Counted from the stretch's first letter, positions 16,266 to 53,883 are shown. The stretch: 64,000 nucleotides of DNA from Candidatus Omnitrophota bacterium (GCA_028716245.1 JAQUQW010000002.1:72947-136946); one strand, 5' to 3'. Notes: generated by a model from the letters alone, not told the origin. A program made the numbers and translations.

Positions 16266-16777
16266 TTGAGCAGGAGCTAATTTTATTAGGCCTGTTACGC
16301 CAAAGCCCCAAGCACGGTTACGAAATTAAGGTAAAAGCGCGCGAAATCCTCTCCTCTTTTGCCGGAGTCCAGTTAAAGTCAATATATTACCCCCTAAGAA
16401 TTTTAGAAAAAAAAGGCCTGCTTACCAAGTGCGCGGATAAATTAGGCAGCAGGCCAAGGCGTTTTGTCTATTGCCTTACCGAAAAGGGTAAAGAGCGCTT
16501 TGAGATATTGCTTAATAAAAACCTGCTGGATTTTACGCGCCCCCAGTTTACTCTTGACCTAAGTTTATATTTCCTCAACTTCTTGAAACCAGCTTTAGCC
16601 CGGCGCCGGCTAAAGAAGAGGCTGGAAATTTTAGGAAAGATCTCCAGCGGCATAGAAAAGATGCTAAAAACCAAAGAATTAAAAGAATCCCTGGCGATTT
16701 CCCGGATTATGGAACATAATCTCTGCCTGCTGCGTGCCGAGTCTTCCTTCCTGAGTTCACTCCTCCAAAAAATTTAA
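16262..16777 (+). CDS. PadR-family transcriptional regulator
   Basis: PadR winged-helix signature (HGYEIKVKAREIL...YPLRILEKKGLL). The stop TAA at 16775-16777 overlaps the first bases of REPIN A. Confidence 0.75.
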   Translation: MIEQELILLGLLRQSPKHGYEIKVKAREILSSFAGVQLKSIYYPLRILEKKGLLTKCADKLGSRPRRFVYCLTEKGKERFEILLNKNLLDFTRPQFTLDLSLYFLNFLKPALARRRLKKRLEILGKISSGIEKMLKTKELKESLAISRIMEHNLCLLRAESSFLSSLLQKI

Positions 16778-16840
16778 ATAGGGACAGCGACCATTTTTCT
16801 CTAAGCTAAACTTCCAAAAAATGGTCGCTGTCCCTATTTA
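16776..16840. repeat. REPIN-like element A (family 1: AAATAGGGACAGCGACCATTTTT, 17-nt spacer, reverse complement)
   Basis: The left arm overlaps the PadR stop and the right arm AAAAAATGGTCGCTGTCCCTATTTA ends at 16840. Confidence 0.85.
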
Positions 16841-16896
16841 TTTAGGCATAAAAGACGTTGAAAATACTATGGTTAGAACAAGGTAACGGTTCAATA

Positions 16897-16949
16897 GGGG
16901 GACGTTTATATTTTTTTAAAGTTGAAGCTGTAAAAAATAGAAACGTCCC
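16897..16949. repeat. family-3 long inverted repeat (GGGACGTTT[A/C]TATTTTTT arms)
   Basis: Left arm at 16897-16917 and right arm at 16933-16949. It is itself bracketed by a 9-bp inverted repeat, GGCATAAAA at 16845-16853 and TTTTATGCC at 16976-16984. Confidence 0.7.
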
Positions 16950-17012
16950 ATTTCTTTTAAGGCGGACAGCAAGTTTTTATGCCCCCGTCGGCAAAATCAG
17001 TAAAAAAAGTAA

Positions 17013-17047: not shown

Positions 17048-17086
17048 ATTTCATATATAATATAGTAATTGCTATAACATACCATA

Positions 17087-18819: not shown

Positions 18820-20327
18820 AGTTAGAAAAGCTTATTTTATGCGCGGTTTTTATTTTGTCCTTTGCAGGATTGGTTTTGGCCGAAGATATTATCGTTGAAG
18901 CTGCTAAAGCGTCTGAGCCGTCAGCAACATTTACCGATAAAGTTTCTTTGGATTTAAAGGGGGTTGATATTAACGAACTTTTTAAATTACTTTCCGCGAA
19001 AACCGGGATAACGATTATTCCGTCTCCGCAGGTCAGCGGGAGGATCACGGTATTTATGAATGATTTAAGCTTTTCCGATGCGCTGGATGTAATTGTTACC
19101 ATGCAGGATTTGGCTTATGAAAGAAAGGCAAATGTAGTCAAGGTAATGACTTTGGCAGAATATGAAAAGGCCTACGGAAAGAAATTCGGAGAGCGCAAGG
19201 AAACCCGCACCTTTAAGCTTGCTTATGCTAAGCCGGCAAACGTGCTCAATGTGATCAATTCCCTGAAATCCGAGCTGGGCAAGATTATTTCCGATGATTC
19301 AACCGGCACCGTCATTATTATAGATACTCCGCAATCCATGGAAGTTATGGCTAATACGATAAAAGAGCTTGACCGGCCCCTGGAGACGCTGGTCTTTGAT
19401 GTCAACTACGCGCGTTTTACCGATATAAAAAATTACCTTAATGAACTGATTACTCCGGGAGTCGGGCAGATAATCGTGGATGAAAGAAGCAGCAAGGTGG
19501 TTGTTTATGACCTGCCGCAGCGCTTAAACCGGATAAAGAAACTTATGCGGGAGTTTGACGAACAATCGCGCCAGGTGCTGATTACCGGCGAAATTATTGA
19601 AGTTACGATCGATGATAAATTCCAAAGCGGTATTGCCTGGGATAAGATTTTTAACCAAGCGGACCTGCATAACCTGGAGTTGGTGGGGAATTTTCCCATA
19701 AGCCCGGCGCTTTCCAATTATGGAAAGATCAGCTTAGGCACATTAGCCCAGGACCATTATAATATAGTAATGAATATGCTTAGTACTTACGGCTCTACGA
19801 AAGTGCTTACCCGGCCAAGGATTGTTGTGGTCAATAAGGAGGAAGCTAAAATACTTGTCGGTACGCGCGAGGCTTATGTAACCTCGACCCAAAGCCAGGG
19901 ACAATCCACGACCCTTACCGCGGAAAGCGTGCAGTTTATCGATGTTGGGTTAAAACTTGCGGTTGTGCCGACCATTGGCGCCGATGGTTTTATTACAATG
20001 AAGATAAAACCTGAAGTCAGTTCAGTGCAGAGCACATTAACCACAACTGCCGGCACGGTTGTGCCGATAGTGGAAACCTCGCAATCCGAGACAGTGGTTA
20101 AAGTAAAAGACGGCAATATGCTGATTATCGCCGGACTGCTTAGAGAAGAAAATGACAAAAGTGATTCAGGGTTGCCTGGCTTATCGCGCCTGCGCATCTT
20201 GGGCCATTTATTTTCTACGAGGGGAAGGGAAAAGAAAAGAAAAGAGTTGGTTATATTTATAACTCCTACAATAATAACCGGAACAAACAATATCAGCCGT
20301 GAGGTAAAGAGTGAAAGCAAACAATAA
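18816..20327 (+). CDS. gspD: secretin (GspD/PilQ family), paralog 1
   Basis: Signal peptide, N0/STN-like domain (LKGVDINELFKLLSAKTGITIIP), and a secretin C-domain (VLTRPRIVVVNKEEAKILVG...ITPTII). Confidence 0.85.
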   Translation: MKLEKLILCAVFILSFAGLVLAEDIIVEAAKASEPSATFTDKVSLDLKGVDINELFKLLSAKTGITIIPSPQVSGRITVFMNDLSFSDALDVIVTMQDLAYERKANVVKVMTLAEYEKAYGKKFGERKETRTFKLAYAKPANVLNVINSLKSELGKIISDDSTGTVIIIDTPQSMEVMANTIKELDRPLETLVFDVNYARFTDIKNYLNELITPGVGQIIVDERSSKVVVYDLPQRLNRIKKLMREFDEQSRQVLITGEIIEVTIDDKFQSGIAWDKIFNQADLHNLELVGNFPISPALSNYGKISLGTLAQDHYNIVMNMLSTYGSTKVLTRPRIVVVNKEEAKILVGTREAYVTSTQSQGQSTTLTAESVQFIDVGLKLAVVPTIGADGFITMKIKPEVSSVQSTLTTTAGTVVPIVETSQSETVVKVKDGNMLIIAGLLREENDKSDSGLPGLSRLRILGHLFSTRGREKKRKELVIFITPTIITGTNNISREVKSESKQ

Positions 20328-22524
20328 ACTCATAAATAGGGACAGCGACCATTTTTTCAAAAACCTTTGGATTCGTAAAAAATGGTCGCTGTCCCTATTT
20401 ATCCTGCTATCTTTAATCAGCCCGCTTGGCGCAAAAAGCGATTCCGCGCAGGAAGATCAGATAGTTGAAGAGAGTCCGAAGGATAAGATATCCTTGGACC
20501 TGAAAAATGTGGATATTGTTGAGTTATTGCGGATTGTCTCGCTTAAAACCGGAAGGACAATCGTTCCCAGCAAGGATGTTTCCGGCCGCATCACCATCTA
20601 TTTAAGCCAGGTTGCCTTTGATGACGTCCTGGATATTATCCTGCTTACTCAAGGGTTGGCCCTAAACAAAAAAGATAACGTGTATTATGTGATGAGTGAA
20701 GCCGAATACAAAAAAATGTATGGCCGGGATTATATTGACCAGAGAAAAATTGAAACAGTCAAGCTTTCCTACGCCAAGCCTTCCATAATTTTTAACGCGC
20801 TCGGCCAGCTTAAATCCGATGTCGGTAAAATCGTAGTTGATGAAGCCAGCGGCACGATAATCCTGATCGATATCCCGGAAAAGCTGGAACTGCTTCAAAA
20901 AACAATCAAAGAATTAGACCAGCCGTTGACTACCGCTATCTATGACCTTAATTACATTAAGCCTGCCGATGCCAAAACCCAGCTTAACGCCGCCATTACT
21001 CCGGGTACAGGCGAGGTAATTATCGATGAAAGAAACGGCAAGGCCATAATTTCGGACCTGCCCAGAAAAATAGATAAGTTAGGGATGCTGGTGCGTGAGA
21101 TAGACGAGGAATCCCGCCAGGTTTATATTGAAGCCGATATCGTCGAGCTTACTTTGGATAATCAATTCCAAAGGGGGATAGACTGGGAAAAGCTATGGAG
21201 TTCTGCGGCAATGAATGGATTGGATTTTTCCGGGAATTTTCCTTTAGCCGCTTTAACGGCAGTGGGGGCAATAACTCAGAAAATCTCAGTGGGTACCTTT
21301 GCCACCAATCATTACCAGGCGATCCTGAATTTTCTAAATACCTACGGAACTACGCATGTTGTTTCCCAGCCGAGGATTGCCGTAGTCAATAACGAAGAAG
21401 CCAATATTATGGTCGGTACGCGCGAGGCGTATATTACTCAGACGCAAAGCCAGGCAACCGCGACCACCGTAACTTCTGAAACCGTAGAGTTTATCGATGT
21501 TGGTGTTAAATTAAAAGTTGTACCTAAAATCAGCGCCGATGATTTTATTACGATGAAGATAAAACCTGAAGTCAGTTCTGTTACCAGGACGCTTACTACT
21601 TCTCTGGGTAGCGTTGTTCCAATAGTGCAAACTTCTCAGTCAGAAAGTGTCGTAAAAATAAAAGACGGGATGATGATTATGATCGCCGGAATGACTAAAG
21701 TTGAGAAGACCGACACAATCAACGGCTGGCCGGTATTGTCAAAAATCCCTTTCTTAGGAGTATTGTTTAGCAATCGCGTGAAGGATACCAAGAGGACCGA
21801 AGTAATTATTTTTCTTACCCCGCACCTGTCGCGCGGCGACGCGGGGTTAAGAGGGGATGAGATAACTAAAATATTGCCGATGGAGAATTTACCGGAGCGC
21901 TTGCAAAACAAGGTAGTCAGGGATAAAGCAATAGATAAGGGGCTATTTACTCCTGAAAAGATGAAGGAAGAATTGGCCAAGAAGCAGGCAATAGAGGTAG
22001 CTGCCGAAGAAACAGCCGAAAGGACCGCCGCAGACAAATTGGCAAAGGCGGCAGAAAAGGCAGAAAAGGCAGCGGTCAAACAAACAGTTGCCGCCGAAGT
22101 AAAGAAATCCAGCCCAAGAGAAGCCGCCAAAGAATATTACCAAAAAGGCCTGCGCGCGCAGGCGGATTCCGATAATGAAGAAGCAATCCGTAATTTTATA
22201 AGAGCCGCGCAGTTGGATAAAAAATACGCCGCCGCTTACAATAGTTTAGGGATTATTTATGAGCAGGAGAGTAAGCCCGAGAAATCCGAGGAGATGTATC
22301 TAAAGGCCGTTTCAGCTGACGAGCGTTATTGCCCGGCCTATTCAAATTTAGCTTTATTTAATGAAAATCGCAAAGATTTTACCAAAGCTTTAGAGTATTG
22401 GCGCAAACGCGTTTTATACGGCGATCAAAATAGCGAATGGACAAAAAAGGCTATACAGCGGATAAAAGAACTTGAGAGCAACAAAGGCGAAACTGTTTCC
22501 GATTCAATCGGGACAGGGGGGTAG
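20311..22524 (+). CDS. gspD: secretin (GspD/PilQ family), paralog 2, with C-terminal TPR extension
   Basis: N0-like domain (LKNVDIVELLRIVSLKTGRTIVP), secretin C-domain (VVSQPRIAVVNNEEANIMVG), then a Lys/Ala/Glu-rich linker and TPR repeats (AIRNFIRAAQLDKKYAAAYNSLGIIY...). Its ATG overlaps the paralog-1 stop by 17 nt. Confidence 0.85.
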   Translation: MKANNKLINRDSDHFFKNLWIRKKWSLSLFILLSLISPLGAKSDSAQEDQIVEESPKDKISLDLKNVDIVELLRIVSLKTGRTIVPSKDVSGRITIYLSQVAFDDVLDIILLTQGLALNKKDNVYYVMSEAEYKKMYGRDYIDQRKIETVKLSYAKPSIIFNALGQLKSDVGKIVVDEASGTIILIDIPEKLELLQKTIKELDQPLTTAIYDLNYIKPADAKTQLNAAITPGTGEVIIDERNGKAIISDLPRKIDKLGMLVREIDEESRQVYIEADIVELTLDNQFQRGIDWEKLWSSAAMNGLDFSGNFPLAALTAVGAITQKISVGTFATNHYQAILNFLNTYGTTHVVSQPRIAVVNNEEANIMVGTREAYITQTQSQATATTVTSETVEFIDVGVKLKVVPKISADDFITMKIKPEVSSVTRTLTTSLGSVVPIVQTSQSESVVKIKDGMMIMIAGMTKVEKTDTINGWPVLSKIPFLGVLFSNRVKDTKRTEVIIFLTPHLSRGDAGLRGDEITKILPMENLPERLQNKVVRDKAIDKGLFTPEKMKEELAKKQAIEVAAEETAERTAADKLAKAAEKAEKAAVKQTVAAEVKKSSPREAAKEYYQKGLRAQADSDNEEAIRNFIRAAQLDKKYAAAYNSLGIIYEQESKPEKSEEMYLKAVSADERYCPAYSNLALFNENRKDFTKALEYWRKRVLYGDQNSEWTKKAIQRIKELESNKGETVSDSIGTGG
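20334..20402. repeat. REPIN-like element B (family 1), 69 nt, lying in frame inside the 5' end of secretin paralog 2
   Basis: Arms are at 20334-20358 and 20378-20402. It is translated as INRDSDHFFKNLWIRKKWSLSLF within the predicted signal peptide. Confidence 0.85.
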
Positions 22525-24562: not shown

Positions 24563-24938
24563 GAAGGTAGATAAAATTTTGAAAATAGCACGGCAGGATG
24601 ATGAAATTCTGGCGGTATTTCTATTCGGCAGCCTAGCGCGGCGAGAAGGACATAAAACAAGTGATATAGATATTTGTTTAATATTGAAACCAGGCAGGTA
24701 TTCTTCTTTAGGCCTTTCTGAGAAAAGGTTTGAATATCTTAAGGTATTCGATTTAGATGTGCAGATTTTTCAACAGCTGCCTCTTTATATTAAAATGAGG
24801 GTGATAAAGGATGGGAAAAAACTTTTTTGCGCGAATGAAGATGAGTTATATCAAAGTGTTTTTAACACGATTACGGAATTTGAAGATTATAGAGATATTT
24901 ACCGTGATTATTTAATGGAGGTAGGAAATGTTAGATAA
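24555..24938 (+). CDS. MNT-type nucleotidyltransferase (antitoxin of a HepT/MNT pair)
   Basis: Pol-beta-type NTase motif GSLARREGHKTSDIDI, 127 aa. Confidence 0.8.
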   Translation: MLKKVDKILKIARQDDEILAVFLFGSLARREGHKTSDIDICLILKPGRYSSLGLSEKRFEYLKVFDLDVQIFQQLPLYIKMRVIKDGKKLFCANEDELYQSVFNTITEFEDYRDIYRDYLMEVGNVR

Positions 24939-25359
24939 AAATAGGATTTTGGTGAAAATTGATGAGCTTGATGGTTATCTTGATGAGCTTGAACAGATTG
25001 CCCCGGCAAAATTGAAATTTAAAGAATACCAGGTAATCGAAAAAAAACGCAGTTGTGAAAGGTTATTACAGCTTTCCATTGAAGCTGTAATCGATATTTG
25101 CAAATTTTTTGTTTCGGGGATGAGATTAGGATTGCCTGCTGAGGAGAATGACCTTTTTGATAAAATGCAAAAGAAAAAATTATTGTCTAAGGAGATGGCG
25201 GTGATTTTAAAAGAAATGAAAGGTTTTAGGAATATTTTGGTTCACGAATATGCAGCCGTGGATGACGAACTTGTATTTAAAGCAATAAAGACAAAATTAA
25301 AAGATTTTAGGAGATTTAAGAAAGAAATCTTAGCAGTATTGGCAAGAGTTAGCAGATAA
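24928..25359 (+). CDS. HepT-like HEPN toxin (DUF86)
   Basis: HEPN R-x4-HxY motif (FRNILVHEY). It overlaps the MNT gene by 11 nt. Confidence 0.8.
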   Translation: MLDKNRILVKIDELDGYLDELEQIAPAKLKFKEYQVIEKKRSCERLLQLSIEAVIDICKFFVSGMRLGLPAEENDLFDKMQKKKLLSKEMAVILKEMKGFRNILVHEYAAVDDELVFKAIKTKLKDFRRFKKEILAVLARVSR

Positions 25360-25586: not shown

Positions 25587-26927
25587 ATGAATAAATATAC
25601 TGTTGGCATAATTCTGGGTATTTTAGGCGCGGGGTTAAATTGCCAGGCGCAGGCGAATCAGGTCTTAGAGCAGGCGCCTTTTGTCCTGGAAGATAATTTA
25701 GCCGGCCCGGCCACGGTAGAACCAGAGCCGATCTTTGCCACAGGAATAATCAAAACTATCTGTGTATCTTATGAGTTTACCGGCCAGGTGAGTTTAGAAG
25801 CCAGCACCAATGGAGGCGTTGATTACACAAAAATAATCAATGGCTCACCGCTTGTTGATGGATTTATTCCGGGAAACCAGCTGCGCTTTAGGGCAAATAT
25901 CGGACCGGCAAGCAGTTTAAAAAAATTAACCATTGGTTACACTGATTCATCAGGAGTATCCAGATTATACCGCAACCCCGATTTAGCAAATTATAAAAAT
26001 CACCGTGAAATTTATATTTCCGGAGGCAGCCAGGAAGTATTTAATTATCCCCTGGAAATAAAATTGGATCCTTTAGCAGCCGGCACTGAAATTTATTTTA
26101 CCGCGGCTGACGGTCAAACTCCGCTTTATTATTATTTAGAAGATCCCGCGCGCTGCTACGTGAAGGTTCTCCAGATCCCCAAAGAAGGCACAAAAATTTA
26201 TGTTTACTGGAAAAATAGGGACAGCGACCGTTTTTCTCCAAGTGAAACAACCAAAAAACGGTCGCTGTCCCTATTTTTAGACGGCAATAAAGTTTTTCCG
26301 TTTTTTGAGGATTTTAACGATGCCTCTTTAAACGCGGAAAAATGGGAAATAATTCCCGGGCTAAAAAAAGAATACAGCATTAAAGATGGATATTTACGGA
26401 TTAAAGATTGTTTAGTGGTAACGCGAAATTTTAAAACCCAACAGGGCATCCTGGAGTTCAAAGCCAAGGCGGAAGAGAACGCGGGGATCCAGGTAGTTGT
26501 GCGCACAAAAGTTTCCGCGGGGTTATCTCCTTACGAACAAATAGTTTACTCTTCGAATTATCCGGGAGCAGAACATACTATCGCGATCAATAACATTGCC
26601 AAGGTGAATATAAGTAATCCGATAAAACCGCTTACCTATTATATCTATCAAGCAACCATCAATTCCACCGGCATTCTTTTTGAAAGATACAGTGAAGACC
26701 GGAAGGAAAAACAGGCCGAGATAAAATTTTTGGATGTGGGGAATTTTAGTGAAGGTTATATTGGTTTAAAAGCGGATGCCGCGCCGTTTAATGCCGGCAG
26801 TGTTTATTTCGATTGGATCAGGGTCAGGCCGTATGTGGAAGTTGAACCAAAGGCGGTGATAAATAGGGACAGCGACCGTTTTTCTCTTCTAGGCGACCAT
26901 GAACCTGTTGCTGAGGTGATGAGATGA
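25587..26927 (+). CDS. secreted DUF2341-like + LamG/concanavalin-like domain protein, carrying an in-frame REPIN insertion
   Basis: Signal peptide MNKYTVGIILGILGAGLNCQAQA preceded by an AGAGGA RBS (the ORF track start at 25521 is probably too far upstream). PLEIKLDP...YYYLED...YVYW resembles DUF2341. NDASLNAEKWEII...GYLRI resembles LamG-like. The ORF is uninterrupted through REPIN D. Confidence 0.6.
   Translation: MNKYTVGIILGILGAGLNCQAQANQVLEQAPFVLEDNLAGPATVEPEPIFATGIIKTICVSYEFTGQVSLEASTNGGVDYTKIINGSPLVDGFIPGNQLRFRANIGPASSLKKLTIGYTDSSGVSRLYRNPDLANYKNHREIYISGGSQEVFNYPLEIKLDPLAAGTEIYFTAADGQTPLYYYLEDPARCYVKVLQIPKEGTKIYVYWKNRDSDRFSPSETTKKRSLSLFLDGNKVFPFFEDFNDASLNAEKWEIIPGLKKEYSIKDGYLRIKDCLVVTRNFKTQQGILEFKAKAEENAGIQVVVRTKVSAGLSPYEQIVYSSNYPGAEHTIAINNIAKVNISNPIKPLTYYIYQATINSTGILFERYSEDRKEKQAEIKFLDVGNFSEGYIGLKADAAPFNAGSVYFDWIRVRPYVEVEPKAVINRDSDRFSLLGDHEPVAEVMR
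26214..26277. repeat. REPIN-like element D (family 1, CCG variant) embedded in frame in a coding sequence
   Basis: Translated without a stop as NRDSDRFSPSETTKKRSLSLF between the DUF2341-like and LamG-like parts of the host ORF. Confidence 0.85.
26860..26886. repeat. solo family-1 REP arm (left arm only) forming the 3' end of the DUF2341/LamG ORF
   Basis: AAATAGGGACAGCGACCGTTTTTCTC with no intact right arm. It is translated as INRDSDRFSL at the C-terminus. Confidence 0.75.
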
Positions 26928-26932
26928 AAGCG

Positions 26933-26968
26933 GCCCTATTTCCCGATTGGGTTGGAAACTGTTTCGGA
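26933..26968. repeat. family-2 repeat unit (CCCGATTGGG + GGAAACTGTTTCGG) immediately upstream of the giant gene
   Basis: GGCCCTATTTCCCGATTGGGTTGGAAACTGTTTCGGAGG. Its 3' end supplies the GGAGG ribosome-binding site 9 nt before the ATG at 26980. Confidence 0.7.
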
Positions 26969-26979
26969 GGAGTGGTTAG

Positions 26980-42610: not shown

Positions 42611-42680
42611 AATAAAGGGACCGTTTCTATTTTTTAATAATAGAAACGAAGAAAAAAATAGAAGCGGTCCCTTTATTTTA
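42611..42680. repeat. family-3 long inverted repeat immediately after the giant-gene stop
   Basis: AATAAAGGGACCGTTTCTATTTTTT at 42611-42636, a 19-nt spacer, then AAAAAAATAGAAGCGGTCCCTTTATTTT. The spacer contains a partial extra arm copy (ATAGAAACG). Confidence 0.8.
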
Positions 42681-42735: not shown

Positions 42736-43422
42736 ATGAAAATTGGGAAGCTTGCTTTCCTATTTTTTGTTTTGGGCCTGTTATTATGCCAACCCGCGCA
42801 GGCAGGGATCTCAATGCGCCTTATGGCGTTAAATCCCGCGGATTCGGTACAGACGGTTACGATTAAAGCTTATCTTCCCCTGGAGGTAAAACCCGAGGAT
42901 GTAATTTATAAAGACGATCTGGAGGTTATTTACGATACTCAACAGGGCAGTTATTATGTTTACGGAGAATATGAGCTTAAGCCCAAAGAGGTCCTGGAAA
43001 AAGAAATAGAGTTAAGGGATATCTGGGTAATCGATGCTTCCCAGATAGCGATGATCCGCCAGGAGGCCAAAGAGATCCTGGAAGGTTTTAAGAAAACAGA
43101 TTCCATGGAGCGGGCAACGGTTCTTTACAATGGCATAGATAAGAAATTAAAAGATGTGGAACAGATGCAAGCCATCGCATCTGCCAGCCCGGGCTACAAG
43201 ATATCGAATTACCGCAATAGCATGACTCTTTTAAATTCCGCAAAAGCCGACCTGCTGGCGGCAAAGACGCTGTTAGCCGAAGTTACGCCCAAGGGAATGG
43301 CCAAGCTTACCTGGAAGATTATTTTATTTATCATTATATTTCTGGGTATTTTGGCCGCCGGGTTCTTTTTTGTCTGGCAGCGCCAGAGCAAACTGGAAGC
43401 GGAACAAAAACCCCCCGAATAA
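42736..43422 (+). CDS. exported protein with C-terminal membrane anchor (hypothetical)
   Basis: Signal peptide (LLCQPAQAGIS), a soluble domain and a C-terminal TM segment (LTWKIILFIIIFLGILAAGFFFVW). No recognisable catalytic motif. Confidence 0.5.
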   Translation: MKIGKLAFLFFVLGLLLCQPAQAGISMRLMALNPADSVQTVTIKAYLPLEVKPEDVIYKDDLEVIYDTQQGSYYVYGEYELKPKEVLEKEIELRDIWVIDASQIAMIRQEAKEILEGFKKTDSMERATVLYNGIDKKLKDVEQMQAIASASPGYKISNYRNSMTLLNSAKADLLAAKTLLAEVTPKGMAKLTWKIILFIIIFLGILAAGFFFVWQRQSKLEAEQKPPE

Positions 43423-43435
43423 ATATCATGAGAAT

Positions 43436-43551
43436 AAATAGGGACAGCGACCATTTTTCCCATTCTTTCCGTCATTCCCGCGTAAGTGGGAATCTGATCC
43501 CCGCTTTTGCGGATATGACAATTTTGAAAAAATGGTCGCTGTCCCTATTTA
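43436..43551. repeat. REPIN-like element F (family 1) with an extended 65-nt spacer containing two additional small hairpins
   Basis: Left arm at 43436-43460 and right arm at 43526-43550. The spacer has ATTCCCGCGTAAGTGGGAAT and CCGCTTTTGCGG hairpins. The right arm encodes residues KKWSLSLFI of the downstream signal peptide. Confidence 0.8.
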
Positions 43552-44297
43552 TTTTGTTTTTTATCCCAGCCTGTGCCTGGGCTGAAGTGAGCACTTCGCT
43601 TTGGCAGACCAAAAAATCCCAGCATTTTATTATTTATTATCAGGAAAGCGCCGATGATTTTGTCAATGAGCTGGATGTTTCAGCGGAAAATTATTATAAC
43701 AGCATCGTCGAAGAATTAGGTTTCCGCCGGATGGATTTCTGGAGCTGGGATGACCGGGCAAAGATATATTTATTCAATAACAGCGCCGATTATTTAAATG
43801 AGACCGGCGGCTTGGCCTGGAGCGGGGCGCAGGTTTCGGTAAAGCTACGCACGATCAAGACCTTTATCGGCCAGGAGACTTTTTTCGATTCTATACTTCC
43901 GCATGAGCTGACGCATATAATCTTCCGGGAATTTATCGGTACCAAAACAGAGCTGCCGCTTTGGCTGGATGAAGGTATCGCCTGTTCTCAGGAAAAAAGC
44001 AGCCTGATTTCGCGGATGGATTCAGCCAGGGCGCTGGTTAAGCAGGATACATATTTAAAATTTGATAAACTCTTCCAGATATATAACTCCACGCTTATCG
44101 TGCCGAATGTATTTTATTCCGAGTCCGCATCGATTATCGTTTTTTTGCTAAAAAAATATGACCGGGAATTATTTTTGGATTTCAGCCGGAAGCTTCGCGA
44201 CGGCATGCAGTGGAAAAACGCCCTTTTAAACACGTATCATTTTTCAAATTTTGAAGAAATGGAATCTGCCTGGAAGGATTTTATGTTGAATAAATAG
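43515..44297 (+). CDS. secreted putative zinc metallopeptidase (HExxH ... E)
   Basis: Signal peptide MTILKKWSLSLFILFFIPACAWA. HELTH plus a downstream LDEGIA is consistent with a gluzincin-like fold, but family assignment is uncertain. The stop TAG at 44295-44297 lies inside the REP arm. The ORF track start at 43428 would include the whole of REPIN F. Confidence 0.5.
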   Translation: MTILKKWSLSLFILFFIPACAWAEVSTSLWQTKKSQHFIIYYQESADDFVNELDVSAENYYNSIVEELGFRRMDFWSWDDRAKIYLFNNSADYLNETGGLAWSGAQVSVKLRTIKTFIGQETFFDSILPHELTHIIFREFIGTKTELPLWLDEGIACSQEKSSLISRMDSARALVKQDTYLKFDKLFQIYNSTLIVPNVFYSESASIIVFLLKKYDRELFLDFSRKLRDGMQWKNALLNTYHFSNFEEMESAWKDFMLNK

Positions 44298-44315
44298 GGA
44301 CAGCGACCATTTTTC
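44292..44315. repeat. family-1 REP arm (left) upstream of the RAYT gene
   Basis: AAATAGGGACAGCGACCATTTTTCC. It has no local partner; its inverted partner lies 3' of the transposase gene. Confidence 0.85.
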
Positions 44316-44412
44316 CTTCAGTCGTTCTTTGATAGATTAGCTTAAATATTTTAGTTAGATTTCCTTTTTTCTGGCGTCTATTGATAATAGAAGAAAGGGA
44401 GGAAAAACTAAT

Positions 44413-45084
44413 ATGCCTAGAATTGCCAGAGTTGTAGCGATAGGTCAACCTCACCACATTACACAAAGAGGTAACTATCGGCAAGACGTATTCCTTAACG
44501 CGGATAACCGAAAACAATACCTTGCCTGGATTAATGAATATAGCGTAAAATACGGGGTTCTCGTTTTGGCCCATTGCCTGATGGCAAATCATGTTCACTT
44601 TATCGCTATTCCTAATGAAAGCGATTCGCTGGCTAAAACATTCAATACCGCTCATATGCGTTATTCCCAGTATTTTAATAAAAAGTTGAAGCAGAGCGGG
44701 CATCTTTGGCAGGGACGTTTTTATTCTTGTGTGTTGGATCAATCTCATCTTATACTTGCCGCTCGTTATATTGAAAGGAATCCTGTGCGCGCAGGACGCG
44801 TAGAGAAACCTTGGCAGTGGCCATGGTCAAGCGCCGCCGCCCATACGAATAGGAAGGATAATAAATCGATTGAGTTTGGGGATCTTCTCGGGATTATCGG
44901 CATGTCAAGCACCGCGTGGGAAAAATACATTGATTCCGCGGAAGAGGACAATTTTTTACAGGATATAAGAAAGCATACGTATGCCGGTCGTCCCCTCGGG
45001 GCGCCGGAATTTACTATAGGTTTAGAGGAAAAATGTGGTAGAAGGTTATGCGCGTTACCGATAGGGAGGCCAAGAAAAAGCTAG
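44413..45084 (+). CDS. REP-associated tyrosine transposase (RAYT; IS200-like Y1 HUH transposase), copy 1
   Basis: 223 aa with HUH motif (ANHVHFIAI) and a conserved C-terminal Tyr-helix region (YIERNPVRAGRV). Inverted family-1 REP arms lie 97 nt upstream and directly after the stop. Confidence 0.85.
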   Translation: MPRIARVVAIGQPHHITQRGNYRQDVFLNADNRKQYLAWINEYSVKYGVLVLAHCLMANHVHFIAIPNESDSLAKTFNTAHMRYSQYFNKKLKQSGHLWQGRFYSCVLDQSHLILAARYIERNPVRAGRVEKPWQWPWSSAAAHTNRKDNKSIEFGDLLGIIGMSSTAWEKYIDSAEEDNFLQDIRKHTYAGRPLGAPEFTIGLEEKCGRRLCALPIGRPRKS

Positions 45085-45108
45085 AAAAATGGTCGCTGTC
45101 CCTATTTA
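45085..45108. repeat. family-1 REP arm (right) directly after the RAYT stop codon
   Basis: AAAAATGGTCGCTGTCCCTATTTA, the reverse complement of the arm at 44292-44315. Confidence 0.85.
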
Positions 45109-45123
45109 TTAAAGGAGGATTAG

Positions 45124-46002
45124 ATGCAGCAGGAGATTAATATTTTAGTAGTTGAGGATGACCCGTCCGCGGCCAGTTGTTTAGAGGCAGCTTTAAAACT
45201 CGCGGATTACCACGTTTGGCTAGCCGCCACTCCGCAGGAAGGCCTGGAACTCCTGCATTCAAATACATTTCCCGTGGCAATCACGGAGTTACGTTCACCA
45301 AAGATGAACGGGATCCAGTTTACCCGCCAAGCGCATAAAATTTCCGCGGGGACAAATATTTTGGTTTTAACGCCCTACTCTTTTGTCGGTTCAGCCATAG
45401 AAGCAATGGAGGAAGGGGCTTACGGTTATATCACCAAGCCTTTAAACAATTCAGAGATACGCATTGTAGTCGAGCGGGCGGTAGAAAGGTATTTTTTGCT
45501 TTCCACCAGTGATGAAAAAGACTATTTTGTGGACCTGGCCGTGCGCGACGGGCTCACCGGTTTGTTTAACCGACGGTATTTCAATGAGTTAATTAACGTG
45601 GAAGTCAACCGCGTAAAACGGTTCCCGACGGCATTATCCTTACTAATGCTTGACATCGATAATTTTAAAAACTATAATGATACCCAAGGCCATCAGGCCG
45701 GAGACGAATTGCTTAAGAGCGCGGCAAAAGTATTTAGGAATTCCGTGCGCGCGGTAGATATCGTCAGCCGTTACGGCGGAGAAGAATTTATTATTATACT
45801 TCCTCAGGCCGATAAAAAAGCCGCGCAGATTATCGCCGAACGCCTGCGGGTGCAGGTAAGTCTCTATCTTCCGACAACGGTAAGTATCGGCATTGCTACT
45901 TTGCCGGATGACGCCAGCGAAGTAGAACAGTTGATTGAAAAAGCGGACAACGCTCTTTATCAGGCAAAAAAAACCGGTAAAAACAAGTGGTGCGTAGCTT
46001 AA
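45124..46002 (+). CDS. REC-GGDEF protein (diguanylate cyclase) with Glu at the phospho-acceptor position
   Basis: GGDEF active site RYGGEEF with an upstream RxxD I-site (RAVD). The receiver has the acidic pair VVEDD, but the position aligned to CheY D57 reads VAITELRSPKMNG (E, not D). Confidence 0.8.
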   Translation: MQQEINILVVEDDPSAASCLEAALKLADYHVWLAATPQEGLELLHSNTFPVAITELRSPKMNGIQFTRQAHKISAGTNILVLTPYSFVGSAIEAMEEGAYGYITKPLNNSEIRIVVERAVERYFLLSTSDEKDYFVDLAVRDGLTGLFNRRYFNELINVEVNRVKRFPTALSLLMLDIDNFKNYNDTQGHQAGDELLKSAAKVFRNSVRAVDIVSRYGGEEFIIILPQADKKAAQIIAERLRVQVSLYLPTTVSIGIATLPDDASEVEQLIEKADNALYQAKKTGKNKWCVA

Positions 46003-46008
46003 AAAATT

Positions 46009-46233
46009 ATGCGTTTTGCGATTTTAGAGCCTAAAGGGGCAATCTGGCGGGGAATGGCTAAAAAAGTAAATCTGCCGGCGGCGGAGGGAGAAATGTGCGT
46101 GCTGGATTTTCACCAGCCTTTTGTAGCCCGGCTTAAAAAAGGCAATATTGTTTTTTCCAATACGCGTATCGCGATAAAAGACGGAATCGCCTTTATGCGT
46201 TCGAATAACCTGACGGTTTTTGCGAATAAATAG
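46009..46233 (+). CDS. atpC: F-type ATPase epsilon subunit, N-terminal beta-sandwich domain only
   Basis: 74 aa. AEGEMCVLDFHQPFVARLKKGNIVF matches the epsilon GE.GILPGHAPL...L.PG core. The C-terminal helical hairpin is absent. Confidence 0.6.
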   Translation: MRFAILEPKGAIWRGMAKKVNLPAAEGEMCVLDFHQPFVARLKKGNIVFSNTRIAIKDGIAFMRSNNLTVFANK

Positions 46234-46235
46234 AT

Positions 46236-46299
46236 AAATAGGGACAGCGACCATTTTTTCTTGGTCGTTTAGATAAAAAATGGTCGCTGTCCCTATTTA
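46236..46299. repeat. REPIN-like element H (family 1) between epsilon and c subunit genes
   Basis: Arms are at 46236-46260 and 46275-46299. The spacer contains the inner mini-hairpin CGACCA...TGGTCG. Confidence 0.85.
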
Positions 46300-47250: not shown

Positions 47251-48708
47251 ATGAAGATTGAAGCCTTAGACATAAAAGAAATCGGAAGGATCGAAGAGCT
47301 TAAGCAGGGGATTGTGAAAATCAGCGGTTTGCCTAATTGCGCCTATGGGGCTGTAATCGAATTCGATAATGGATTAAAAGGAATGATCGTTGAATTTGAC
47401 GCGCAATTTGCCTTTGGGATTGTTTTTGGGGATGAACGCAGGATTAAGGTCGGCGATACGGTTTCCACCCGCGGCCAGCTGCTTAATGTTCCGGTAGGGG
47501 ATAATTTTATCGGCAGAGTGGTTGATCCTTTGGGTAACCCGATAGACGCAAAAGGTAAAATTGAGCCGGCAGCGGTAAATCCGGTCTTCCATCAGGCATC
47601 CGGGGTTATGGAGCGCGAGCCAATAAGCCATCCTTTGCATACTGGGATAAAAATTATCGATATGCTTATCCCGCTGGGCAAAGGCCAGCGGGAATTGATC
47701 GTCGGAGACCGGCAGATCGGCAAAACCAGCATCAGTTTGGATATGATCATCAATCAAAAAGGCAAAAATGTTATCTGCATTTACTGTTGGATCGGAGGAA
47801 GCAGCGCGGCTTTTAATAAGATTATCCAGGTGCTTAACCAACAGGGTTGTATGGACTTTTGCCTTGCTGTCTGCGCCTCGGCAAGCGCCTCGGCAAGCGA
47901 ACAATATATTTGTCCTTATACCGCCGCGGCATTAGGTGAATATTTTATGTATAATGGTAAGGATGTCCTGGTAATTTTTGACGATTTGACTAAGCACAGC
48001 TGGGTTTACCGGCAGATGTCTTTGCTGCTTGAGCGGGCCCCGGGAAGGGAAGCGTATCCGGGAGATATCTTTTTCTTACATTCACAGCTTATGGAGCGCG
48101 CCGGCCGCCTGAAGAAAGAATTCGGAGGCGGGACAATGACATTCTTGCCGTTAGCCGAAACACTGCAAGGTGATATTACCGGTTATATCTGCTCGAATAT
48201 CGTTTCGATGACCGACGGGCAGATTTATTTAAACTCCGGGCTTTTTCAGGAAGGTTTCAAACCGGCGATCGATTTGGAACTTTCAGTTTCGCGTATCGGA
48301 AGCAAGGTGCAATGCCCGGCCATCCGTAAATTAAGTGAAGGCCTGCGTTATGAATACGTGCAATACCGTTCTTTACTGCGTTTGACCCGCCTGCGCACCA
48401 AACTTAGCCCGGAGAGCGCCCAGCAACTGCAGCGGGGCCGGGCCCTTTATGAGCTTTTGATTCAGGAAAACGGTTCTCCTTTATCTCAGGCAGAGGAGAT
48501 CGCTGTTTTTTTTGCCTTTCGCCAGAAGATACTTGAGTCAATCAGTATCGAGCAGGTAAAATTGTTTAAAAATAATTTCTTTGCCTATTTAGGCAAGCAT
48601 CAGCAGAATTTAGTGGGGCAACTGGATAGCAAAGGTGAGCTTACGGAAGAAATTAAACTGCTTTTGGATAAAACGATAAAAGATTTTTTCCGCAGCCAGG
48701 ATAAATAG
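47251..48708 (+). CDS. atpA: F-type ATPase alpha subunit (divergent)
   Basis: Walker A GDRQIGKTS and alpha-like N-terminal beta-barrel and C-terminal helical domains. It contains a 12-nt exact tandem duplication (47875-47898) encoding ASASASAS. The stop TAG overlaps the REPIN I arm. Confidence 0.8.
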   Translation: MKIEALDIKEIGRIEELKQGIVKISGLPNCAYGAVIEFDNGLKGMIVEFDAQFAFGIVFGDERRIKVGDTVSTRGQLLNVPVGDNFIGRVVDPLGNPIDAKGKIEPAAVNPVFHQASGVMEREPISHPLHTGIKIIDMLIPLGKGQRELIVGDRQIGKTSISLDMIINQKGKNVICIYCWIGGSSAAFNKIIQVLNQQGCMDFCLAVCASASASASEQYICPYTAAALGEYFMYNGKDVLVIFDDLTKHSWVYRQMSLLLERAPGREAYPGDIFFLHSQLMERAGRLKKEFGGGTMTFLPLAETLQGDITGYICSNIVSMTDGQIYLNSGLFQEGFKPAIDLELSVSRIGSKVQCPAIRKLSEGLRYEYVQYRSLLRLTRLRTKLSPESAQQLQRGRALYELLIQENGSPLSQAEEIAVFFAFRQKILESISIEQVKLFKNNFFAYLGKHQQNLVGQLDSKGELTEEIKLLLDKTIKDFFRSQDK

Positions 48709-48768
48709 GGACAGCGACCATTTTTTTGGCCGCTACACTTAGAGAAAAATGGTCGCTGTCCCTATTTT
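48703..48768. repeat. REPIN-like element I (family 1) between alpha and gamma subunit genes
   Basis: Arms are at 48703-48727 and 48745-48768. The first arm contains the atpA stop codon. Confidence 0.85.
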
Positions 48769-51021: not shown

Positions 51022-51023
51022 AT

Positions 51024-52643
51024 ATGTCGACGAATAAATTATTAGGGGAGATGCTGGTAAAAAGAAATTGTATTACCCAGGAGCAGCTTGATCAGGTGCT
51101 TAAGGACTCTGTCTGCCAGGAGGATATGCTTGGGGCTATTCTGGTGAACAAGGGCCTGTTAAAAGAAGAGGATTTGCTCAAAGCGCTTTCTGAACAGTTC
51201 AATTTACCGTTTTTTGCCCGCTTAAAAGACGCCCATATCTCTACGGAGGCGATTAAAGCCGTGCCGGCAAAATTCGTCAAGCACTATGGTTTTATGCCGA
51301 TTAGTTTGGAGGGTGAGGCTTTGACTGTGGCGGTATTTAATCCCATGGATGTTTGGCTGGCGGAAAATATCAAATTGAACCTGGGGTTTAGGGTCAGCCG
51401 GATTTTAACTTCCCGCCGCGAGGTGGAGGCGGCGATACATAAATATTACGGGGCAGTGGCCGGAACCGTCGATAAGATCATGGAAGAGAAGATCGGCCAG
51501 GGCACAAAGTTAGCCAAGGATGAGAGCGTTGAAGATATTGAAAAAAACGCGGGCGAAGCATCGGTGATCGAGCTGGTTAACCAGATAATCAGCGAGGCAA
51601 TCAAGATGCGCGCCACGGATATCCATATTGAGATATACGTGGACAAGGTAGTCTTACGTTACCGTATTGACGGGGTCCTTCGGGAAATGAAGATGCCCCA
51701 GGACGCTTATTATATAGAGCCGGCGATTGTTTCGCGGATTAAAATTATGTGCCATTTGGATGTTGTCGAACACCGCATTCCGCAGGACGGCCGGGCAAAG
51801 GTGCGCTTGCTTGACGGGCAGGAAGTAGATTTAAGGGTTTCGATATTACAGGGGTATTTCGGAGAAAATGTGGTTATCCGGATCCTTCCTTCCCAGGTGT
51901 TGTTAGATTTAGATAAAATTGGGTTTGCCCCCGAAGATTTAAAAACGATCGTGAAGCTTTTGCAAAAACCGCACGGGATTATCTTAATTACCGGGCCTAC
52001 CGGAAGCGGTAAGACCACCACGCTTTATACCTGTTTAAGCCGCCTGAACCGTAAGGAGGTAAAAATTATCAGTATTGAAGACCCGGTTGAATACGCCATT
52101 GAAGGGATAACCCAGATCCATGTTAATCCCAAGGTGGGCTTAACTTTTGCCAGCGCCTTGAGAAGCGTCTTAAGGCATGACCCGGATATTATGATGATCG
52201 GTGAGATTCGTGATTCTGAGACCGCCGACCTGGCAATCCGCTCATCCCTTACCGGGCATTTGGTTTTCTCCACCTTGCATACTAATGATTCTGCCAGTGG
52301 TATTGCCCGGCTTATGGATATGGGTATTGAGCCCTACCTTTTAGCTTCTTCGGTTGAGGTAATTATCGCCCAGCGCCTGGTGCGCCTGCTCTGCCCGTTG
52401 TGTAAAGGCAAGGGGTGCGAATCTTGCAGTGAGACGGGATTTAAAGGGAGAAAGCCGATATATGAAATTATGCTTATCGATAATGAAATCCGCGGGATGA
52501 TTACCGAACATAAGAACGCCCAGGATATTAAGGCCAAAGCCAGGGAAAAAGGCATGCGCACGCTTATGGAGAATGGTATGCTTTTGGTCCAAGAAGGTTT
52601 AACGACTAAGGAAGAGATCATGCGCGTGGTGGAGTTGGAATAA
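51024..52643 (+). CDS. gspE: type II secretion / type IV pilus assembly ATPase GspE/PilB
   Basis: N-terminal T2SSE_N-like domain, Walker A GPTGSGKTT and the tetracysteine motif CPLCKGKGCESC. The ATG at 51024 follows a GGAGAG RBS. The ORF track start at 50997 overlaps atpD. Confidence 0.9.
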   Translation: MSTNKLLGEMLVKRNCITQEQLDQVLKDSVCQEDMLGAILVNKGLLKEEDLLKALSEQFNLPFFARLKDAHISTEAIKAVPAKFVKHYGFMPISLEGEALTVAVFNPMDVWLAENIKLNLGFRVSRILTSRREVEAAIHKYYGAVAGTVDKIMEEKIGQGTKLAKDESVEDIEKNAGEASVIELVNQIISEAIKMRATDIHIEIYVDKVVLRYRIDGVLREMKMPQDAYYIEPAIVSRIKIMCHLDVVEHRIPQDGRAKVRLLDGQEVDLRVSILQGYFGENVVIRILPSQVLLDLDKIGFAPEDLKTIVKLLQKPHGIILITGPTGSGKTTTLYTCLSRLNRKEVKIISIEDPVEYAIEGITQIHVNPKVGLTFASALRSVLRHDPDIMMIGEIRDSETADLAIRSSLTGHLVFSTLHTNDSASGIARLMDMGIEPYLLASSVEVIIAQRLVRLLCPLCKGKGCESCSETGFKGRKPIYEIMLIDNEIRGMITEHKNAQDIKAKAREKGMRTLMENGMLLVQEGLTTKEEIMRVVELE

Positions 52644-52644
52644 A

Positions 52645-53883
52645 ATGATATTTTTATATAAGGCTAAGAAAAACCTTAAGGAGGTTGTCGAGGGCAAAAT
52701 CGACGGGGGCAGTGTCGAGCAGGTGCTTGAAGATCTGCAGGCAAAAGGGCTTGTGCCGATTTCCGTCGAGCCGTTAATCGGCCCGCCTGTTTCCGCAGCG
52801 GCATCCGCAAAAACTTCCCCCAAACCCGAAACAGTTTCCAACCCAATCGGGAAATGGGGTTTAAAAAACCTAGTTTTGTTCACCCAGAAACTTTACAATC
52901 TGGTTAATTCCCGCGTAGAGTTACTTAGCGCCTTAAGGCTTTTAGAAAAGGACTGCCAAAATCAGACCGAAAAATTATTACTTTCCGATATCATAAAGAA
53001 TATTAAAGACGGTGTTTCATTTTCCAATTGCCTTAGCCGCTACCCGCAGTATTTCCCGCAATTTTACGTCAATATTGTCCACACCGGCGAGGCAACCGGC
53101 AAGCTCAAAGATTCCCTGATCCAACTTTTGGACTATCTGCGCCGGTTTGAAGATTTAAGGACCAAGGTAAAACAGGCGCTTGCTTATCCAATATTTATGA
53201 CTTTGGTTGGCGTAGGCACGATATTTGTAATGCTTACTTTTGTCCTGCCGAGGCTGGCCGGGATGTTTGAAGATTTTCAGGCGCAGCTGCCCTTACCCAC
53301 ACTTATTTTACTCAATATCGCGAATTTCCTTAAAGCTTATTGGGTATTTGTAATCGGATTTATTGTTATTCTTGTCTTTGCGTTTAAGGTCAACGGCGCA
53401 GGCAAGGAAAGTGTTTTTAGCCGCCTGAAATATCATATTCCCATTGCCAAAGATATTGTTTATAAACAGTCGGTGGCCAACTTTTCCAGAAGTTTATCCC
53501 TGCTTTTGCAAAGCGGAGTGAACCTGCTTTCCGCCTTGGCCGACGCCGGTCCGATAATCGGCAATCCGGTTTATGTCAGCCAACTTGAACAGGTGCGCCG
53601 TGATATCAGCCAAGGCATGCCTTTTTCAGACTCCTTGGCCAAATTCAAAATCTTCCCGGATTTTTTTGTGCAGATGATCCGCGTCGGCGAAGAAGGCGGC
53701 AGGCTGGACAGCGTACTGGCGGATATCGCCGAGTCTTATGAAAAAGAGATTGAGGCAGATTTAAAGGTCGTCAGTTCCCTTATTGAACCGGCGATAATTT
53801 TGGTCCTGGGCCTGGTGATCGGGGCGATGGTTATTGCCATGCTCCTGCCGATATTTAATATGAACAGCCTTGTCGGTGGCTAA
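52645..53883 (+). CDS. gspF: platform protein GspF/PilC
   Basis: 412 aa. The N-terminal FLYKAKKNLKEVVEGKIDGGSVEQVLEDLQAKGLVPISVEP is the typical GspF/PilC start, followed by two T2SSF domains with three TM segments. It carries a family-2 repeat in frame at 52825-52859. Confidence 0.85.
   Translation: MIFLYKAKKNLKEVVEGKIDGGSVEQVLEDLQAKGLVPISVEPLIGPPVSAAASAKTSPKPETVSNPIGKWGLKNLVLFTQKLYNLVNSRVELLSALRLLEKDCQNQTEKLLLSDIIKNIKDGVSFSNCLSRYPQYFPQFYVNIVHTGEATGKLKDSLIQLLDYLRRFEDLRTKVKQALAYPIFMTLVGVGTIFVMLTFVLPRLAGMFEDFQAQLPLPTLILLNIANFLKAYWVFVIGFIVILVFAFKVNGAGKESVFSRLKYHIPIAKDIVYKQSVANFSRSLSLLLQSGVNLLSALADAGPIIGNPVYVSQLEQVRRDISQGMPFSDSLAKFKIFPDFFVQMIRVGEEGGRLDSVLADIAESYEKEIEADLKVVSSLIEPAIILVLGLVIGAMVIAMLLPIFNMNSLVGG
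52825..52859. repeat. family-2 repeat unit (CGAAACAGTTTCC + CCCAATCGGG + GGAAATGGGG modules) embedded in frame in gspF
   Basis: Translated as PKPETVSNPIGKWG in the linker after the N-terminal cytoplasmic domain. The ORF stays open. Confidence 0.75.

Follow-up and report, generated by a model that had tools for sequence, protein, structure and literature searches.

How does a short dispersed repeat come to hold the stop codons of the genes upstream of it? The question is raised by a 64,000-nt stretch of a Candidatus Omnitrophota genome (GCA_028716245.1, JAQUQW010000002.1:72947-136946), hereafter the window, and all window counts refer to these 64 kb of the source genome. Here the arms of a repeat resembling the repetitive extragenic palindromes (REPs) lie over the ends of the genes for PadR, a metallopeptidase-like protein (pepMA), atpC and atpA, and directly against that of gspF. 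On balance we favour the reading that the arms form a REP/REPIN-like doublet family, accompanied by a bracketed transposase gene of the RAYT (REP-associated tyrosine transposase) or TIRYT type, and that the stop overlap stems from the sequence of the arm tip together with selection in short spacers.

The repeat and its doublets

The motif TAGGGACAGCGACC[A/G]TTTTT occurs 21 times in the window at up to 3 mismatches, against 0.02 copies expected. Every copy is preceded by AAA, mostly as (A)ATAAA, so the arm is the 25-nt unit (A)ATAAATAGGGACAGCGACC[A/G]TTTTT, found about once per 3 kb. Eighteen of the 21 arms pair into nine close inverted doublets (16779, 20337, 25418, 26216, 43439, 46239, 48706, 53888 and 58311), mostly of 57–61 bp and in one case (43439) of 109 bp. 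The remaining arms are a true solo at 26864 and two, at 44295(+) and 45085-45104(-), that flank a transposase gene. The elements are listed below, with the strand where one applies.

16775..16840: REP doublet 1; its arms span 16779-16798 and 16817-16836, and PadR stops at 16775-16777 with the TAA of the tip TAAATAGGG; hairpin -38.1 kcal/mol, z -11
20334..20400: REP doublet 2; between two secretin genes; upstream stop TAA 20325-20327, 6 nt ahead of the arm's AAA
25415..25478: REP doublet 3; intergenic, 55 nt past the stop of gene 24928-25359
26213..26276, plus strand: REP doublet 4; within the DUF2341 gene (about 25587-26927), translated as NRDSDRFSPSETTKKRSLSLF in the stop-free frame
26861..26883, plus strand: solo arm; lies among the final codons of the DUF2341 gene, which reads through it; gene stop 26925-26927
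43436..43550: REP doublet 5; 109 bp with a nested palindrome in the loop; between gene 42736-43422 and pepMA
44292..44314, plus strand: left arm of the transposase unit; TAG 44295-44297 is the pepMA stop and AAT AAA gives the final residues NK
44413..45084, plus strand: Y1 (HUH) transposase gene of RAYT/TIRYT type; 223 aa with NHVH, WQGRF and AARYIERNP; Pfam Y1_Tnp 4.1e-14
45085..45107, minus strand: right arm of the transposase unit; directly after the transposase stop, followed by the ribosome-binding site and ATG of a GGDEF gene
46225..46298: REP doublet 6; a partial tip duplicate AATAAATAG at 46225-46233 gives the last two atpC codons (NK) and the TAG 46231-46233
48703..48767: REP doublet 7; fills the atpA-atpG spacer; TAG 48706-48708 is the atpA stop; hairpin -39.6 kcal/mol
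53884..53950: REP doublet 8; contains three arms, with a degenerate inner one at 53909-53922; abuts the native gspF stop TAA 53881-53883; hairpin -42.6 kcal/mol
58297..58371: REP doublet 9; same subfamily as doublet 6; 66 nt past the stop of gene 57303-58241 and 18 nt ahead of the next ATG

The doublet loops of 18–30 nt are degenerate copies of the right arm, a nearly intact one being present in the 53888 doublet, and the 43439 loop hosts an additional small palindrome. In computed folding, the doublets as RNA form stems of 24–29 bp (-38 to -43 kcal/mol, z-scores between -7 and -12), and the stop codon is base-paired within these hairpins. The orthologous PadR doublet of a relative (L203 6693-6753; L numbers denote loci of other genomes) has GCGGCC/GGCCGC where the window doublet (16779-16836) has GCGACC/GGTCGC, a compensatory pair that keeps the stem. 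Doublets 46239 and 58311 make up one subfamily (ATTAAATAGATAAATAGGG) with loops and flanks in common. The inverted units, short spacer, hairpin and duplication as a unit that define a REPIN are all found here, nine of the 11 elements being doublets.

No family matched in an Rfam scan of the window at gathering score, and our literature search with the arm sequence found no description of it. The terminator scan admits loops of up to 8 nt, so it is uninformative for doublets with their 18–30 nt loops. The doublet 5 junction varies among relatives: L200 has the orthologous doublet, L199 a different REP family and L104 none.

Stop codons in the arm tip

Counted from the T of TAGGG, the tip holds TAA at offset -4 and TAG at offset 0, hence stops in two frames. 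The third frame, AAT AGG GAC AGC GAC (NRDSD..), is open; the frames were checked in all nine doublets. As the repeat sits exactly on gene ends in a compact genome, its tip AATAAATAG is often the stop of the upstream gene.

A preliminary description of the window had put the stops of four genes (16775-16777, 44295-44297, 48706-48708 and 53881-53883) within the first bases of a left arm. All four coordinates are correct and the gene identities hold in Pfam (PadR; Peptidase_MA_2 for pepMA; ATP-synt_ab for atpA; T2SSF for gspF). For pepMA and atpA the stop is indeed the TAG of the arm's TAGGG, and for PadR it is the TAA of the tip, with its T one base outside 'AAATAGGG'. The gspF gene does not belong with them: its own native TAA lies outside AAATAGGG, abuts the arm and stands one codon ahead of the arm's own TAA (GGC TAA TAA ATAGGG). 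The list had also missed an additional case, atpC (46009-46233), whose TAG 46231-46233 falls within a partial tip duplicate (AATAAATAG followed by ATAAATAGGG).

Where the open frame meets the gene, the repeat is translated. The solo arm, described earlier near 26860 and placed at 26864 here, does lie in the last codons of an ORF (open reading frame), that of the DUF2341 gene, which reads through it (INRDSDRF..) as ..EPKAV-INRDSDRFSLLGDH-EPVAEVMR to its end at 26925-26927. Orthologues end in ..EPKAVKNE, ..EPIAEVTR or ..EPVAEVIK. The 26216 doublet is translated into 21–22 residues of a hypervariable linker midway along the same protein. An NCBI protein of the source genome (P0241), 100% identical, contains both translated repeats; the doublet translation is found also in the orthologues P0242 and P0243, and in others this position is taken by peptides from different repeat families.

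Across species, this linker (alignment columns ~290-330) contains peptides read in frame from three or more repeat families (NRDSDRF..KKRSLSLF, GTVSIF..KIETVPFF and IPAFAGMT), and from these alignments it is a recurrent intragenic landing site. The palindrome nested in the 43439 doublet loop (43459-43527, ..CGTCATTCCCGCGTAAGTGGGAATC..) translates as IPAFA[GD]MT, which occurs in the DUF2341 linker of P0246 and P0247.

A stop-free frame crosses whole doublets at 20311-20440 and 43428-43560, so the mechanically called ORFs 20311..22524 and 43428..44297 extend upstream through the repeat. Their true starts are probably downstream of it.

Placement at gene ends

The window gene list was curated by hand, guided by the called genes of L199, L200, L201 and L203. 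Once the repeats are taken out, spacers between genes have a median of 4 nt, and 34 of 51 junctions do not exceed 15 nt. Five of the nine intergenic elements lie over an upstream stop or within 2 nt of it, against 6.2% for each under a uniform-intergenic null (P≈9.5e-5); the three strict in-arm cases alone give P≈0.015 under the same null. The elements favour short operon junctions over the long spacers, where most of the non-coding DNA lies. At operon junctions that contain a REP, only 11–22 nt are not repeat; in three of them (46233/46308, 48708/48781 and 53883/53962) this remainder is 11–13 nt, located wholly on the start-codon side.

Beyond the window, arms were collected from 203 loci, 120 from a genome collection, 78 from an atpA-based metagenome scan and five from contig look-ups (L199-L203), giving 182 arms with those of the window. 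The genome-collection scan used the core GGGACAGCGACCNTTTT alone as its pattern, with the AAATA tip excluded. Open frames of 100 codons or more run into 102 of the 182 arms. Stops of these frames peak at offset 0 (n=10, all TAG), -4 (n=8, all TAA) and -7 (n=9, the stop abutting the arm), while neighbouring offsets have about one or fewer each and the rest are thinly scattered. About 12 or fewer of the 102 frames read through, a class that includes spurious antisense frames such as two minus-strand window entries, so the 10:8:12 frame ratio is approximate. The near-even use of TAG, TAA and the open frame suggests that an arm ends any frame reaching it, and speaks against codon-phase targeting.

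The strong preference for 3′ ends of ORFs, proposed earlier from the window, is therefore supported, and it extends to other genomes and to independently filled sites. The pattern may reflect an insertion preference or survival after selection.

Native and altered C-termini

The other proposal of the preliminary description, REP-driven truncation and replacement of C-termini, survives in a much reduced form. On comparison with orthologues, the PadR, atpA and gspF ends are native, and those of pepMA and atpC differ at 1–3 terminal residues. For PadR, 114 of 120 orthologues have 171 aa, the same as in the window, and end in ..LLKKI, the window protein in ..LLQKI. For gspF, the REP-free L013, L177 and L143 end in ..GG with TAA at the same position.

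The atpA gene of the REP-free sister L200 (92% aa identity) ends identically in ..SQDK, with CAG GAT AAA TGA whose TGA overlaps the atpG ATG; the window junction reads CAG GAT AAA TAG followed by GGACAG. Many more distant orthologues end in ..QNK with TGA, TAG or TAA and no repeat. A look-up of the window atpA sequence found no identical protein on record. The identical end in L200 and the widespread ..QNK mean that the protein end is native and the stop triplet alone is repeat-derived.

The window pepMA ends in ..FMLNK, compared with ..FMLNQP in L199 and ..FILRNF in L104, a difference of 1–3 residues. The window atpC ends in ..FANK with TAG, whereas eight REP-free junctions end in ..FAQ[TI] with TAA (..GCG CA[AG] xxx TAA), and the native TAA survives just past the doublet as CCCTATTTAAT TAA CCT ATG. 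Judged from these alignments, C-terminal replacement in the window is real but limited to 0–3 residues. A larger loss occurs elsewhere: in L164, an independent insertion cuts atpA to ..EFVVK, with ~6 residues lost.

The transposase gene between two arms

The preliminary description overlooked that the seemingly solo arms at 44295 and 45085 bracket a transposase gene, and also that the phenomenon had already been published (PMC3733652). The arms 44295(+) and 45085-45104(-) delimit 44413-45084, the arrangement of a REPtron, in which the gene lies between inverted copies of an abundant repeat. The product scores 70.7 bits, below the cut-off of 80, with the NCBIfam model REP_Tyr_transpos (REP-associated tyrosine transposase) and 19.9 bits with transpos_IS200. 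It thus has what marks a RAYT-like protein, namely HUH and the catalytic Tyr with RAYT models outscoring IS200. A Y1/HUH gene of the RAYT/TIRYT kind between two arms points to a REPtron/TIRtron system.

Homologues with the same flanking arms are found in five other metagenome-assembled genomes (MAGs; L039, L043, L041, L035 and L097), and NHVH and AARYIERNP are conserved in six homologues. The arm-gene-arm spacing is alike in L039, L043, L035 and L097, with 53–55 nt upstream and 13–18 nt downstream. By its motifs and length, NHVH / WQ / YIERNP in 223 aa compared with NHVH / W[EQ] / YIELNP in ~238 aa, the protein appears to fit TnpA-Y1 subclass 2.1. A Pfam search (E<=1e-3) of the transposase found no C-terminal helix-turn-helix (HTH) or DnaA_C domain. 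The arm reads A-GGG-A-C-A-G and agrees at 7 of 8 positions with the terminal inverted repeat (TIR) motif GGGG[AT][CG]A[CG], to which the related L201 variant GGGGACAG is an exact match. The transposase would be what mobilises the doublets.

The gene has one copy in the window and is syntenic in L104 (degraded) and possibly in L158, while it is absent at the site in L199 and L200. In L200 (7840-7900 versus window 44270-45125) the entire arm-transposase-arm unit is missing. The gap resembles a deletion between two TTTAT repeats, of which one is in the 3′ end of pepMA and the other at the right arm's outer end, and the L200 pepMA is fused to a new tail (..EFIQKEDLDAERD) that overlaps the start of the GGDEF gene.

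Filled and empty sites

The filled/empty comparisons rest on sister loci of relatives 4–25% diverged, so later changes blur the insertion junctions. Insertion directly 3′ of TAAA or AATAAAT fits PadR, the two independent atpA cases (window and L163) and, on the other strand, L133; the L146 and atpC sites match no simple rule. One common rule was sought in insertion 3′ of TAAA, in TA duplication and in AATAAATAG on both sides of the element, and none of the three fits all pairs. Two candidate empty sites were discarded. L126, considered for L163, keeps AATAAATAGG plus TA..AAAG and may be a deletion derivative of the doublet, and the contig of L202, considered as the empty allele of L201, stops 17 nt past the stop codon.

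The same junctions hold other families in sister genomes, GGGGACGGTTCT.. at gspF and pepMA in L199 and GGGGACAGCC.. at PadR in L201, and the atpA-atpG junction has unrelated palindromes in many MAGs. They are therefore general landing or survival sites. At atpA-atpG, the Omnitrophota loci L123, L133, L134, L192, L185, L140, L152 and L175 have palindromic insertions of unrelated sequence (gtcattgcgag...gaagcaatc); behind some of these comes a small ORF beginning MTNK... that resembles a GIY-YIG-type gene. The junction is a general hotspot.

Explanations for the stop overlap

In the explanation that we favour, the outer tip, (A)ATAAATAG before GG, is conserved in every arm and is probably the counterpart of the transposase-recognised 'xTAG' tag of classical REPs; its TAG would be conserved for transposase binding, and the tip itself brings the two stops and leaves the third frame open. 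In a genome of extreme compactness with many ATGA overlaps, a 60-bp hairpin may be tolerated in one kind of place only, past the last important codon upstream and ahead of the 12–19 nt initiation region of the next gene, that is, on or after the stop. A copy landing a few bases upstream of a native stop would have the protein ended by the arm's TAA or TAG at a cost of 0–3 residues, and a copy in the third frame would simply be translated. The pattern would then arise from selection in short spacers, aided by the likeness of the tip to native A/T-rich gene ends.

Several points weigh against this explanation. Selection alone does not readily explain the frequent exact abutment of stop and arm (offset -7, n=9). 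Insertions occurred independently in atpA (window and L163) where the native (G/A)ATAAAT already matches the tip, which looks like targeting or microhomology. The filled/empty pairs give inconsistent boundaries, from which no single cleavage site or target-site rule emerges. The tallies also have their bounds: that of stop distances in the source genome covers 64 kb, and that across genomes uses open frames uncurated as genes.

Genuine target specificity is a live rival, although a clearly weaker one in our estimate. Here insertion would occur beside TAAA or AATAAAT, in the manner of IS200/IS605 elements with their insertion 3′ of a fixed tetra- or pentanucleotide. In genes with such A/T-rich ends this sequence is typically a stop codon and its surroundings, and the in-arm TAA would be the native stop (the target) and the TAG the element's first triplet. 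The PadR sequence at the native stop position, ATT TAA A/TAGGG, suits this, as do the change at atpA from an empty GATAAA/TGA to GATAAA/TAGGG, with L163 hit independently at the same AATAAAT, and L133, where TTTAA in the native right flank agrees with an insertion 3′ to TTAAA on the opposite strand. So do L177, where the native AAT TAA became AAT TAG/GGACAG with the stop position unchanged, the excess of stops directly abutting the arm, and the preference for short operon junctions over long spacers. However, AAATA travels with the element: it is on both arms, including those facing no gene, and across phyla, so the tip belongs to the element, and the 46239/58311 subfamily has a duplicated tip within the copied unit. 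L146 and the atpC site are outside any one target rule, and several copies lie 6–66 nt away from a stop. Much less probable still is a miniature inverted-repeat transposable element (MITE) of a Tc1/IS630-like DDE transposon, ending in GGGACAG...CTGTCCC, for which the flanking TA, and hence the TAG, would be a target-site duplication. Every copy does read TA-GGGACAG...CTGTCCC-TA, and the L177 pair fits a TA duplication (TTA/ATTT to TTA[GGG..CCC]TAATTT), but the duplication fails at L133, atpA, L146 and atpC, the AAA past the TA is likewise conserved, and the only transposase bracketed by arms is Y1/HUH, in six genomes with fixed geometry.

A selected function is unlikely in our judgement as the cause of the overlap, although some features would suit it. 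A stable hairpin with the stop in its foot would tune expression at operon junctions, through protection from 3′ decay, ribosome stalling or the uncoupling of atpA and atpG. E. coli REPs within ~15 nt of a stop reportedly lower translation via ribosome stalling and tmRNA (Liang, Rudd & Deutscher 2015), and REPs are also reported to stabilise upstream mRNA (Newbury et al. 1987). The base-paired stop in hairpins of -38 to -43 kcal/mol, the doublet breaking the atpA-atpG ATGA overlap seen in REP-free relatives, the different REP families at the same sister-genome junctions (gspF and pepMA in L199, PadR in L201) and the compensatory double change between L203 and the window are all in line with it. 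Yet presence and absence vary freely among close relatives, with L200, L126, L013 and L177 empty, the same junctions accept unrelated insertions, and further copies are within genes and in long spacers. The least credible account, mere coincidence between an A/T-rich repeat end and A/T-rich gene ends, can draw on TAA ending 29 of 41 long frames in the window, more than any other stop, and on the tiny spacers, but is opposed by the window P≈1e-4, the sharply peaked offsets (0, -4 and -7) of independent genomes and the like behaviour reported for other REP families (PMC3733652).

A bolder combination is conceivable and, we think, doubtful. The RAYT-mobilised doublet would be a portable, bidirectional two-frame stop cassette, specific for TAA(A), that re-tunes termination and coupling at streamlined Omnitrophota operon junctions such as atpA-atpG, with the arm-transposase unit moving also among MAGs of Omnitrophota, Planctomycetota, Nitrospirota, Desulfobacterota-like bacteria and Clostridia. 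If true, such cross-phylum movement contradicts the usual species-specific and vertically inherited REP/RAYT pairs.

Comparison with known systems

REP termini often give a TAG stop to flanking ORFs, and REPs between co-directional genes (uni-REPs) lie near the 3′ end of the upstream gene (Di Nocera, De Gregorio & Rocco 2013, PMC3733652). Since both were described then, the Omnitrophota case is a new instance of a described phenomenon and brings no new principle. It differs in its ATAG tag, in a further TAA that stands in another frame, in an arm of TIR type instead of a self-complementary hairpin, and in its Omnitrophota host.

The GTAG REPs and REPtrons of E. coli, Pseudomonas and Stenotrophomonas (Nunvar 2010, PMC2817692; PMC3733652) are alike in having a short, abundant palindromic repeat with an outer xTAG, a Y1 gene between inverted copies with the repeat directly after the transposase stop, and copies mostly between co-directional genes near the upstream 3′ end, giving TAG stops. 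There, the RAYT (TnpA-REP) binds the GTAG tag base-specifically (Messing et al. 2012, PMC3479197). The tag is GTAG in those systems but ATAG (AAATAG) here, with a TAA in a second frame. The GTAG REP is a self-complementary stem-loop of 20–40 bp with an unpaired GTAG, whereas the single arm here is not self-complementary; pairing is between two arms 18–30 nt apart and the TAG pairs with the partner's CTA. The host is a further difference, the arm being found in Omnitrophota and also in several other phyla.

There is a likeness also to the TIRtron/TIRYT systems, which correspond to subclass 2.1 and to Bertels group 1. TIRYT genes are flanked by long inverted repeats bearing GGGG[AT][CG]A[CG] (Di Nocera 2013, PMC3733652), and Quentin et al. 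2018 equate them with TnpA-Y1 subclass 2.1 (PMC6006769). Both have a RAYT-like gene flanked by long TIRs, here with the arm aGGGACAG, dispersed TIR copies that are often dimers, a patchy multi-phylum distribution, and proteins of ~220–240 aa with NHVH / WQ / YIE[L/R]NP. The differences are the lack of a C-terminal HTH by Pfam and the A in place of the first motif G here, and also the density of ~1 arm per 3 kb where TIR families are described as 'moderately abundant'.

REPINs (Bertels & Rainey 2011; PMC3337134) resemble the doublets as inverted pairs forming one long hairpin, with orthologous sites and compensatory changes; the classical ones consist of two REPs, each an imperfect palindrome, while here the loop has only a degenerate third arm copy. 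Rickettsia palindromic elements (RPEs) and the intragenic REPs of Opitutus terrae and others likewise include an in-frame doublet of ~20 aa tolerated in a variable protein region, but here it concerns one window gene, whose linker hosts different families by species. IS200/IS605 elements (IS608, ISDra2) are of the same Y1/HUH family, and insertion of their kind, 3′ to a fixed short sequence, would account for copies right after TAAA. They have dissimilar subterminal hairpins, in contrast to the long perfect inverted repeats and the absence of a consistent target rule found here.

For annotation, the results mean that stops, the last 1–3 residues and some N-terminal extensions are repeat-derived in these genomes, as are ~20 aa of the DUF2341 protein, which stem from translation of the repeat. 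Gene calling and the comparison of orthologues should allow for these contributions. The REP/RAYT (TIRYT) system is extended to Omnitrophota, and the filled and empty operon junctions are a natural series for the effects of a -40 kcal/mol hairpin set on a stop codon, as regards termination, mRNA stability and coupling.

Distribution across phyla and other repeats

In the genome-collection scan (L001-L120), whose pattern lacks the tip, the arm has the AAATA tip at 30 of 36 Omnitrophota loci, 10 of 20 from Planctomycetota including Kuenenia and Scalindua relatives, 7 of 9 from Nitrospirota, 6 of 9 of Deltaproteobacteria type, 5 of 12 from Clostridia and all 3 from Desantisbacteria. None of the 25 loci labelled Bacteroidota, other Proteobacteria, Actinomycetota, Chloroflexota, Verrucomicrobiota, Cloacimonadota, Aerophobetes or Altiarchaeota has it, so these are apparent chance matches. 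Example arm loci are L039 6965-7704, L097 1653-2386, L061 4590-4648, L093 2681-2733, L062 173-317 and L086 2930-3048. Several of these arm-bearing MAGs also carry a transposase 50–65% identical to that of the window. REP/RAYT pairs being usually species-specific, arm and transposase together in multiple phyla suggest horizontal spread or binning errors.

Other repeats share the gene ends of the window. A second doublet family, AATAAAGGGAC[A/C]GTTTCTATTTTT...AAAAATAGAAACGGTCCC, is at 4098-4152, 42617-42671 and about 16885-16950, 7–12 nt past stops, and its tip has TAA and no TAG; in the close relative L199, a family related to it (GGGGACGGTTCT) takes the place of the first family at the junctions of gspF and pepMA. 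A third small repeat with an internal palindrome, CCCATTTCCCGATT...GAAACTGTTTCGG, occupies spacers directly after stops at 26927-26980 and 55866-55943, and is found also in L199 (about 7570-7640) and L201 (about 10570-10600). The DUF2341 gene is followed by an ORF of 5,207 aa (26980-42603), and L200 has in the same place a gene of at least 3,845 aa with Laminin_G_3 and DUF2341 domains.

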